Part shown: positions 8,931 through 12,159 of the stretch, piece by piece
How the letters are laid out: every line of letters begins with the position of its first letter
How positions within the stretch are numbered: position 1 is the stretch's first letter
Assembly: GCA_964016885.1 (NCBI GenBank)
Contig: OZ024740.1
Span: 190,650,001-190,714,000, forward strand
Direction of reading: 5' to 3'
Source of the DNA: Eledone cirrhosa
Lineage: Eukaryota
Length of the DNA: 64,000 nucleotides
Program-made: the position numbers and the translations under genes
The notes under the pieces: model-generated
What the model was told of the DNA's origin: nothing
The model's database searches: none
Seen by the model: only the letters and a program-made list of their open reading frames with translations

Positions 8931-11900
8931 AAATTGAAACAAAATGAAAACGAAATTTCATTTCTCACTGACCGATTTAACTCACTCAATATGCAAATTA
9001 GGCTGCTCAGCCGTTAATTTTCATAAGGAAAGTATATACTTTCGAACGTTCAACTATCTGGCAGATGGGTAAACGGTGCTGATGATAGCTAACAAGCTTG
9101 AAACTAGTACATCGTTCCTGTGTCAGTGTTGAACAAAAAGGTGACGTGGTTGCCTTAACACCGTATGGCATAAATTCAGGCTGTTCAGTTTGTTTACAAA
9201 CGAACAAAGCGACGTTAGCGCCGCTAAACTGATACGTGCATATATGTATGTGTACCTGTATGCATATGTATATATATATGTATATATATATATATATGTG
9301 CATGCTACTGTACGTCTGTATACATATATGTATGTACGTATACATGCATACTTACATTTAAGTAAGTGCCATACTAAGAGTGAGAAATGAAATTTCGTTT
9401 TCATTTTGTTTCAATTTATCGTTTTCGGTATGCCTGACCGATTTAACACACTCAATATGCAAATTAGGCTGCTCAGCCGTTAATTTTCATAAGGAAAGTA
9501 TATACTTTCGAACGTTCAACTATCTGGCAGATGGGTAAACGGTGCTGATGATAGCTAACAAGCTTGAAACTAGTACATCGTTCCTGTGTCAGTGTTGAAC
9601 AAAAAGGTGACGTGGTTGCCTTAACACCGTATGGCATAAATTCAGGCTGTTCAGTTTGTTTACAAACGAACAAAGCGACGTTAGCGCCGCTAAACTGATA
9701 CGTGCATATATGTATGTGTACCTGTATGCATATGTATATATATATGTATATATATATATATATGTGCATGCTACTGTACGTCTGTATACATATATGTATG
9801 TACGTATACATGCATACTTACATTTAAGTAAGTGCCATACTAAGAGTGAGAAATGAAATTTCGTTTTCATTTTGTTTCAATTCATCGTTTTCGGTATGCC
9901 TGACCGATTTAACTCACTCAATATGCAAATTAGGCTGCTCAGCCGTTAATTTTCATAAGGAAAGTATATACTTTCGAACGTTCAACTATCTGGCAGATGG
10001 GTAAACGGTGCTGATGATAGCTAACAAGCTTGAAACTAGTACATCGTTCCTGTGTCAGTGTTGAACAAAAAGCTGACGTGGTTGCCTTAACACCGTATGG
10101 CATAAATTCAGGCTGTTCAGTTTGTTTACAAACGAACAAAGCGACGTTAGCGCCGCTAAACTGATACGTGCATATATGTATGTGTACCTGTATGCATATG
10201 TATATATATATGTATATATATATATATATATGTGCATGCTACTGTACGTCTGTATACATATATGTATGTACGTATACATGCATACTTACATTTAAGTAAG
10301 TGCCATACTAAGAGTGAGAAATGAAATTCCGTTTTCATTTTGTTTCAATTTATCGTTTTCGGTATGCCTGACCGATTTAACTCACTCAATATGCAAATTA
10401 GGCTGCTCAGCCGTTAATTTTCATAAGGAAAGTATATACTTTCGAACGTTCAACTATCTGGCAGATGGGTAAACGGTGCTAATGATAGCTAACAAGCTTG
10501 AAACTAGTACATCGTTCCTGTGTCAGTGTTGAACAAAAAGGTGACGTGGTTGCCTTAACACCGTATGGCATAAATTCAGGCTGTTCAGTTTGTTTACAAA
10601 CGAACAAAGCGACGTTAGCGCCGCTAAACTGATACGTGCATATATGTATGTGTACCTGTATGCATATGTATATATATATGTATATATATATATATATGTG
10701 CATGCTACTGTACGTCTGTATACATATATGTATGTACGTATACATGCATACTTACATTTAAGTAAGTGCCATACTAAGAGTGAGAAATGAAATTTCGTTT
10801 TCATTTTGTTTCAATTTATCGTTTTCGGTATGCCTGACCGATTTAACTCACTCAATATGCAAATTAGGCTGCTCAGCCGTTAATTTTCATAAGGAAAGTA
10901 TATACTTTCGAACGTTCAACTATCTGGCAGATGGGTAAACGGTGCTGATGATAGCTAACAAGCTTGAAACTAGTACATCGTTCCTGTGTCAGTGTTGAAC
11001 AAAAAGGTGACGTGGTTGCCTTAACACCGTATGGCATAAATTCAGGCTGTTCAGTTTGTTTACAAACGAACAAAGCGACGTTAGCGCCGCTAAACTGATA
11101 CGTGCATATATGTATGTGTACCTGTATGCATATGTATATATATATGTATATATATATATATATATGTGCATGCTACTGTACGTCTGTATACATATATGTA
11201 TGTACGTATACATGCATACTTACATTTAAGTAAGTGCCATACTAAGAGTGAGAAATGAAATTTCGTTTTCATTTTGTTTCAATTTATCGTTTTCGGTATG
11301 CCTGACCGATTTAACTCACTCAATATGCAAATTAGGCTGCTCAGCCGTTAATTTTCATAAGGAAAGTATATACTTTCGAACGTTCAACTATCTGGCAGAT
11401 GGGTAAACGGTGCTGATGATAGCTAACAAGCTTGAAACTAGTACATCGTTCCTGTGTCAGTGTTGAACAAAAAGGTGACGTGGTTGCCTTAACACCGTAT
11501 GGCATAAATTCAGGCTGTTCAGTTTGTTTACAAACGAACAAAGCGACGTTAGCGCCGCTAAACTGATACGTGCATATATGTATGTGTACCTGTATGCATA
11601 TGTATATATATATGTATATATATATATATATGTGCATGCTACTGTACGTCTGTATACATATATGTATGTACGTATACATGCATACTTACATTTAAGTAAG
11701 TGCCATACTAAGAGTGAGAAATGAAATTTCGTTTTCATTTTGTTTCAATTTATCGTTTTCGGTATGCCTGACCGATTTAACTCACTCAATATGCAAATTA
11801 GGCTGCTCAGCAGTTAATTTTCATAAGGAAAGTATATACTTTCGAACGTTCAACTATCTGGCAGATGGGTAAACGGTGGTGATGATAGCTAACAAGCTTG

Positions 11901-12159
11901 AAACTAGTACATCGTTCCTGTGTCAGTGTTGAACAAAAAGGTGACGTGGTTGCCTTAACACCGTATGGCATAAATTCAGGCTGTTCAGTTTGTTTACAAA
12001 CGAACAAAGCGACGTTAGCGCCGCTAAACTGATACGTGCATATATGTATGTGTACCTGTATGCATATGTATATATATATGTATATATATATATATATGTG
12101 CATGCTACTGTACGTCTGTATACATATATGTATGTACGTATACATGCATACTTACATTT
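8931..12159 (+). mobile_element. Retrozyme-like tandem array of about 7 x 466-468 bp units, each with one HHR, inserted in (TA)n
   Basis: Near-identical units (ORF-track artefacts recur at 9007, 9473, 9939, 10873, 11341, 11807); 8931-8968 is an inverted copy of about 9380-9417; both ends abut (TA)n. Confidence 0.9.
9072..9116 (+). ncRNA. Minimal type I HHR, unit 1 (repeated at 9538, 10004, 10472, 10938, 11406, 11872)
   Basis: AACGGTG-CTGATGA-T-AGCT-AACA-AGCT-T-GAAA-CTAG-TA-CATCGTT: 7-bp stem I, palindromic ACTAGT, predicted cut after 9109; copy 4 reads CTAATGA and copy 7 GTGATGA. Confidence 0.85.

Follow-up and report, generated by a model that had tools for sequence, protein, structure and literature searches.

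The locus examined here, an array of near-identical units lying between two (TA)n tracts in a window of 64,000 nt of Eledone cirrhosa DNA (assembly GCA_964016885.1, contig OZ024740.1, positions 190,650,001 to 190,714,000; coordinates below count from the first letter of this window), raises the question of what kind of element it is, how it was pasted into its site and from what template it was copied. The array is present in the assembly much as a preliminary description of this DNA had it, with near-identical units (99% matches), and it is a real, young, non-coding member of a known element class and not a new kind of element. The ends of the array, the ribozyme motif of its units and a second, older element in the same window all bear on how it was copied.

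TRF returns a period of 466, 6.8 copies and 99% matches over 8968-12160, and aligning the units resolves the array into 6.84 units of 466 or 468 bp, that is, six whole units followed by unit positions 1-393 (starts at 8968, 9434, 9900, 10368, 10834, 11302 and 11768; lengths in that order 466, 466, 468, 466, 468, 466 and 393 bp). The head-to-tail repeat of the preliminary description hence stands, but its count of seven units of 466 bp does not. Similarly, the few SNPs that it reported are confirmed (seven substitutions in 3,193 bp, four of them transversions), whereas its single TA step is in fact carried by two of the seven units (units 3 and 5). Every one of the substitutions is private to a single unit, as expected of one copying event. 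The unit has a GC content of 36%, and the window at large is AT-rich DNA with many TA and CA microsatellites. No protein coding was found in the unit, whose longest stop-to-stop frames (114 aa) run through microsatellite and leave no reading-frame remnant; the RT and GIY-YIG frame of an autonomous Penelope-like element is absent, as is any LTR arrangement (in a search that left PBS and PPT aside). Folded as a circle, the unit is predicted to reach -153 against -105 +/- 6 for 60 shuffles, much of which is given by its TA-rich hairpin. The features of the locus are collected in table 1.

Table 1. Features of the array, of the older related element and of decayed frames in the 64,000-nt window. 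Unit positions count from the start of a unit.
Feature	Positions	Strand	Basis or remark
Left (TA)n, inferred target	8881..8931	.	TRF and junction reading; adjoins end of older repeat
Inverted short arm (unit 412-452)	8929..8969	-	3 nt common to (TA)n, 2 nt (CT) common to long arm
Long arm	8968..12160	+	Six whole units, then unit 1-393
Octamer ATGCAAAT (8991-8998) and 12-bp interrupted palindrome	8989..9012	+	Every unit; promoter-like (inferred)
TATA-like box (9033-9038) and GGCAG (9060-9064)	9033..9064	+	Every unit; predicted start region
Hammerhead, unit 1, type I, intact	9072..9116	+	Descriptor and folding; predicted cut 9109/9110
TA/CA-rich long hairpin, internal	9232..9351	+	Present in every unit
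59-nt "tail" between outer ends of the arms (unit 394-452)	9361..9419	+	Two predicted hairpins
Hammerhead, unit 2, intact	9538..9582	+	Descriptor
Hammerhead, unit 3, intact	10004..10048	+	Descriptor
Hammerhead, unit 4, core change G5A at 10481	10472..10516	+	Unit alignment
Hammerhead, unit 5, intact	10938..10982	+	Descriptor
Hammerhead, unit 6, intact	11406..11450	+	Descriptor
Hammerhead, unit 7, core change C3G at 11879	11872..11916	+	Unit alignment
Right (TA)n, inferred target, about 105 bp	12159..12264	.	2 nt common to element
Decayed Penelope-like RT and GIY-YIG frames	18410-20049, 22511-23170, 48972-50435	all -	
Older related hammerhead element outside the array	31786..32428	+	(TA)n, inverted arm, 1.2 units of period 440

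The unit is not confined to this locus. It is present in 20 of the 24 listed sequencing runs, which come from 15 studies and are labelled with 15 organisms and one wastewater metagenome; contig alignment covers seven of the 24 runs, whose record is silent on DNA versus RNA. Run X2 holds 4,835 family contigs (1,144 at 99% likeness or above, 1,437 at 95-99%, 1,701 at 90-95% and 553 below 90%), and by these sequences the family is large, with subfamilies. A single-locus satellite, the case that the preliminary description had set against its own proposal, is unlikely given so many contigs of graded likeness in one run (a count of contigs, with positions unmapped). Indeed, the identification as a retrozyme fits: tandem units, type I hammerheads in consecutive units, a non-coding sequence and multiple copies were all found. 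Runs X2 and X8 also carry the older repeats of the array's left flank, and the source of X2 is therefore probably the host or close kin; the unique flank at 7300-7880 has patchy cover in X2 and none in X8, X6 or X13. Run X6 contributes 15 contigs of diverged variants together with flank repeats, like a relative, and X13 a single 151-nt piece. Runs X1 and X5 have one contig each (470 and 486 nt, depth 7 and 10), covering a single unit with a TA run at either end and differing from the common state of the array at 0 and 1 of 379 sites; three more runs from the same samples as two of the holders contain next to none of the unit's words, and exact-pattern scans returned nothing in metagenome contigs (two patterns) or viral contigs. 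Carry-over from a library rich in this variant is the simplest reading, and the most likely source, of near-identical units under other organism labels. No mark of RNA editing is seen: read along the ribozyme strand, the seven private SNPs include no A-to-G change, and contigs of X1 and X8 equal the common state of the array.

Every unit contains a hammerhead motif made up of a 7-bp stem I, CUGAUGA, a 4-bp stem II with U.U at its base, GAAA, a CUAG loop and a GUA triplet; in unit 1 this triplet ends at 9109 and the downstream product is hence predicted from 9110 (cut site at unit 142/143). Stem I and the ACTAGT palindrome occur in seven of seven units and the two core mutations fall where they had been placed (table 1), leaving the core intact in units 1, 2, 3, 5 and 6 (five of the seven). 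The description of the motif as a minimal hammerhead, in contrast, does not hold: by the criteria of PMC4209133, which gives the canonical metazoan form as a helix I of about 6 bp, a helix II of 4 bp and a helix III of 1-2 bp with a palindromic loop, it is a canonical type I motif with a weak palindromic helix III. Among 20,000 shuffled units (a shuffle that keeps dinucleotides only approximately), a core with a stem I of at least 7 bp arose in none and one with a stem I of at least 4 bp in eight. Rfam recognizes no hammerhead in the array at gathering score (its sole hit is Hammerhead_HH9, at 18.5 bits and E 0.13), so that the motif is called a ribozyme on the strength of the descriptor. The 13-nt core contains two of the seven SNPs (P about 0.016, post hoc). 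Variants in X2 occupy 21 sites at a frequency of at least 5%, of which only N7 and one base of loop II lie within 9545-9575, a result that is not significant; no core position varies at this level against about 1.5 expected, with low power. A contig end at 9110 in run X8 was dropped as a sign of cleavage, as contigs cannot show RNA ends.

Folding predictions bear on whether such a motif would act alone. The 45-nt motif folds at -9.5 kcal/mol (-7.4 in the active topology), both values being below the -5 criterion. Set against a rival fold in which C3-U4 are engaged by the loop of helix III, the active topology is 2.2 kcal/mol dearer (-17.4 versus -19.6 kcal/mol), and in all five folding contexts C3 and U4 pair with the CUAG loop at a probability of 0.75-0.98. 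The ACUAGU self-duplex is predicted at -4.8 kcal/mol. Hammerheads with a helix III of 1-2 bp and a palindromic loop are described as inefficient alone and active as dimers (PMC4209133, PMC7229834). Because the lone motif is predicted to misfold, ACUAGU would self-pair and the described forms work better as dimers, cleavage as a dimer of neighboring units is plausible. Among predicted Xenopus dimers, one of nine is reported to cleave in vitro and eight are not (10.64898/2026.07.22.740005).

The ends of the array speak to the manner of its insertion. Both lie in (TA)n, as previously described; with (TA)n on either flank there is no readable target duplication (in non-LTR retrozymes longer than 4 bp when present), and such a target is a weak mark in a window where TA tracts abound. 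At the left end, the inverted piece first given as 38 bp is indeed inverted, its length being 41 bp as an exact reverse complement of 9379-9419 and 38 bp without the 3 nt common to (TA)n. The opposed arms start at unit positions 393 and 452, an offset of 59 nt (56-61 allowing for microhomologies; one locus), both start sites lie in or beside predicted hairpins, and no arm end coincides with the cut site or with the predicted transcription start. On a circular map of the unit, the inner end of the long arm falls 14 nt from the start of the short arm, a closeness that chance would give in about 4% of cases (one locus, post hoc), and the inner end of the short arm stops 18 nt short of the start of the long arm. 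Whatever the template, twin priming is expected to leave one small gap; on linear RNA, to judge from L1, it would give a loss at the inversion point like the 18 nt seen here.

These ends resemble the products of Penelope-like elements, whose insertions, with examples from rotifers, comprise an inverted truncated copy and a tail of 30-40 bp and of which the Naiads prefer (TA)n (PMC8557442, PMC3846280). The anole Penelope protein is described as cutting and extending both strands and as starting to copy inside the RNA, where the part that separates two RT start sites makes up the tail; in vitro, uncut RNA is its main and preferred substrate (PMC11167929). Apart from the longer tail, the array ends, as far as they can be read from sequence, fit a Penelope-like footprint. 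Four contigs of run X1 (depth 35-88) match only 9379-9419, with five to seven differences and unrelated flanks, and may be chance in AT-rich sequence. Strand-change joints at 9449/9512 and 9495/9619 in X2 (one contig each) may be other inverted insertions or artefacts. Beyond the array, the 3' end of a LINE-like frame (12265-12860, minus strand; no Pfam match) stops in the right (TA)n.

Ahead of the hammerhead, the octamer and TATA-like box of each unit form a candidate internal promoter, proposed from sequence; the octamer by itself is at chance level (7.4 expected in the window). The older element near 32 kb has an inverted arm of ~90 bp (31786-31873), three octamer-like modules (degenerate copies of the module stand at 32057 and 32090), a type I core at 32217 with a long extended helix I, and two arm ends within about 30 nt of each other; Rfam gives no hammerhead match whatever in it. 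Common to the two elements are the octamer with a short palindrome, a TATA-like box 42-43 nt on and GCAG 27 nt further, at the position where the extended helix I begins, and the spacings from octamer to TATA to core are 42/46 nt in the array and 43/49 nt in the older element. The 105 nt before the two cores align with a score of 49 against 22.6 +/- 4.0 (reached by one of 3,000 shuffles; a region picked after looking), whereas the downstream part aligns less well (42 of 3,000 shuffles). Common descent would also give such an alignment of the upstream regions. The unit has four T4 runs, so that polymerase III would stop before the next hammerhead, and either read-through or polymerase II would be needed. 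According to one review, promoters seem to be missing from retrozymes (PMC7761336). Immediately before the (TA)n of the older element lie three tRNA-like or related copies, direct and inverted, with a period of 242 (31186-31775), in which Rfam finds tRNA at 31284-31354 (minus) and 31566-31636 (plus).

We hypothesize that the young array is a copy of a non-LTR retrozyme that was pasted into (TA)n in the Penelope manner, probably by way of one circular RNA, and we give this account as a whole about an even chance. Its first part, a retrozyme inserted by a Penelope-type mechanism, is highly probable, and the older element, with its (TA)n, inverted head, hammerhead and same spacing, would speak for it; once that part is granted, a circle as the template is somewhat favored. 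Transcription would start at the octamer-TATA block about 47-50 nt before the cut site and read through further units. Neighboring hammerheads are predicted to pair through ACUAGU and cut at 9109/9110 and the equivalent sites, giving 466-nt monomers that would be ligated into circles, as coral, mussel and axolotl retrozymes suggest. A borrowed Penelope-type RT/endonuclease would then nick both strands of (TA)n, the 3' ends priming at unit positions 393 and 452. From the second of these sites copying would halt after 41 nt, and from the first it would run 6.84 rounds. Finally, the two copies would be joined via the 2-nt microhomology that is observed at their junction. The circle is favored because of the 14-nt coincidence and because all SNPs are private, and rolling-circle copying is preferred over a linear multimer or later local amplification. 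It is not easy, however, to draw on one circle how the long arm passed the priming site of the short arm six times.

A possible, if less probable, reading retains the retrozyme and the Penelope-type insertion and dispenses with the circle, the template being a linear, incompletely cut multimer from a parent array (by twin priming) or the array being a 1.84-unit insertion later expanded by unequal exchange. The 18-nt loss at the inversion point is the product expected of twin priming on linear RNA, and SNPs that break the core in two of the seven cases would suit an uncut linear multimer, as would the predicted poor folding of the lone hammerhead; identical ends would be seen in a later-expanded 1.84-unit insertion too. 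Stepwise expansion would, however, tend to leave some substitutions common to several units, of which there are none, and a linear template offers no explanation of why the long arm should end, on its inner side, 14 nt from the other start. For the same reading count the preference of the anole Penelope enzyme for uncut RNA as its main substrate in vitro (PMC11167929) and the local amplification that is the model of 10.64898/2026.07.22.740005. It is improbable that a solo pseudo-LTR (pLTR) or truncated Penelope stump was amplified as a satellite, with the hammerhead and promoter block as passengers and no unit-length RNA: the motif is canonical and not of the minimal pLTR type, the unit is free of reading-frame remnants, no core position is variable at 5% or more in X2 (with the low power noted above) and the second family keeps the same build, even though pLTRs bear type I hammerheads and TATA-like boxes (PMC4209133, PMC3846280) and 24 of 57 Xenopus retrozyme families have transposon matches, Penelope elements being 21 of the 22 (10.64898/2026.07.22.740005). 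An assembly artefact in copy number or inversion is very improbable, for although no matched contig bridges the left junction (8874-8955 lies outside the contig comparison), four of the seven SNPs are transversions and Penelope structures are difficult for assemblers (PMC8557442), every unit has a state of its own, the junctions have microhomologies, X2 and X6 contigs show head-to-tail context before unit position 1 (loose ends at 8968) and the second, decayed element has the same build.

The preferred account, a retrozyme copied from a circle by Penelope-type machinery, can be extended by promotion from within the unit. Self-promoted, two-primer copying that stays within the species is a tentative proposal, and a self-promoting circular RNA, Penelope-copied from both DNA ends on one circle and also moving between species, is scarcely credible; if the latter were true, the one-unit contigs under unrelated labels would be real passengers.

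Elsewhere in the window, decayed frames of Penelope-like type (table 1), the kind of helper that the preferred account calls for and to that extent in its favor, include a GIY-YIG frame (48975-49304; E 1.5e-4, which falls narrowly short of the Pfam cut-off). Another, at 19483-20049, is RT-like: it has an Atlas score of 0.95 to clusters in which 12-19% of members carry RVT_1, and an RT motif in common with 50076-50435. Pfam detects GIY-YIG in one of nine decayed frames and nothing in the other eight, a PDB search of structures returned nothing, and a search for pLTR homology of the unit found no match elsewhere in the window. Another repeat (8620-8880, plus strand; 15315-15410, minus strand), at the end of which lies the (TA)n that holds the array, contains a block of CUGA-N-GA, a 6-bp stem and GAAA with no type I stem I; the repeat is very abundant in X2 and X8. 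A stretch of 22 nt at 52208-52229 resembles the core and stem II of the array at 86% (E 0.16) and is possibly a worn copy. Similar stretches at 30195 (minus strand) and about 32745-32780 (plus strand), with a hammerhead-like core, a palindromic CAATTG and a 4-bp stem I, represent another small family. The window also contains 66 perfect copies of ATAAAA (25623-26018), a duplication with a spacing of about 680 bp (33369-34511) and 1.9 copies of a 183-bp unit past the end of a decayed Penelope frame (17616-17957).

Among known systems, the array is closest in build to the metazoan non-LTR retrozymes, with which it has in common tandem non-coding units, one type I hammerhead in each and a GC content below 50% (PMC7229834), together with a self-paired predicted circle and Penelope elements in the same genome (PMC7229834, 10.64898/2026.07.22.740005). 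Its unit is slightly above their usual 150-450 bp and inside the wider range of 51-972 bp (10.64898/2026.07.22.740005), and the retrozymes described in these sources are given no counterpart of its inverted arm, its tail, its target in (TA)n or its candidate promoter within the unit (PMC7229834, 10.64898/2026.07.22.740005). Two axolotl motifs are instructive: HHR_Amex1 has a one-pair helix III with a palindromic tetraloop and HHR_Amex2 has U.U at the base of helix II, each as in the array, and both are described as cleaving poorly alone and better as dimers (PMC7229834). Unlike either, the array joins both weak features in one predicted motif, with a GUA triplet. Newt satellite 2 reportedly makes use of an octamer and starts its transcripts about 47 nt before the cut. 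It is likewise a hammerhead satellite with an internal snRNA-type promoter and is the cited exception to promoterless retrozymes (work of Coats, 1994, as cited in PMC2220036 and PMC6765202); the newt repeat uses polymerase II, whereas the TATA-like box and T4 runs of the array look polymerase III-like. The minimal pLTR hammerheads of PMC4209133 are also of type I, with predicted dimer action and a palindromic 15.2-16.2 region; the array differs in having a helix II of 4 rather than 7-8 bp, a helix I of 7 rather than 4-5 bp, no G10.1-C11.1 pair and a loop 3. With Penelope-like insertions, the array has in common the inverted truncated copy at the 5' side, a tail on one arm and, as for Naiads, (TA)n (PMC8557442, PMC3846280), and unlike them it has no RT/endonuclease frame, a tail of 59 rather than 30-40 nt and a multi-copy arm built of a small unit.

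A link between retrozymes and Penelope elements has been proposed (PMC7229834) and argued from their distribution and from pLTR homology (10.64898/2026.07.22.740005). In the portions of the main texts on animal retrozymes that were covered, we came across no description of an inverted arm, a tail or a promoter within the unit (PMC7229834, 10.64898/2026.07.22.740005), and the words "inverted" and "microsatellite" each have 0 occurrences in the main text of PMC7229834 as available. As far as these sources go, both the transcription of animal retrozymes and the enzyme that pastes them have been proposed and not demonstrated; against this background, one young locus keeps both signatures, a pair of Penelope-like start sites together with a promoter candidate inside the unit.
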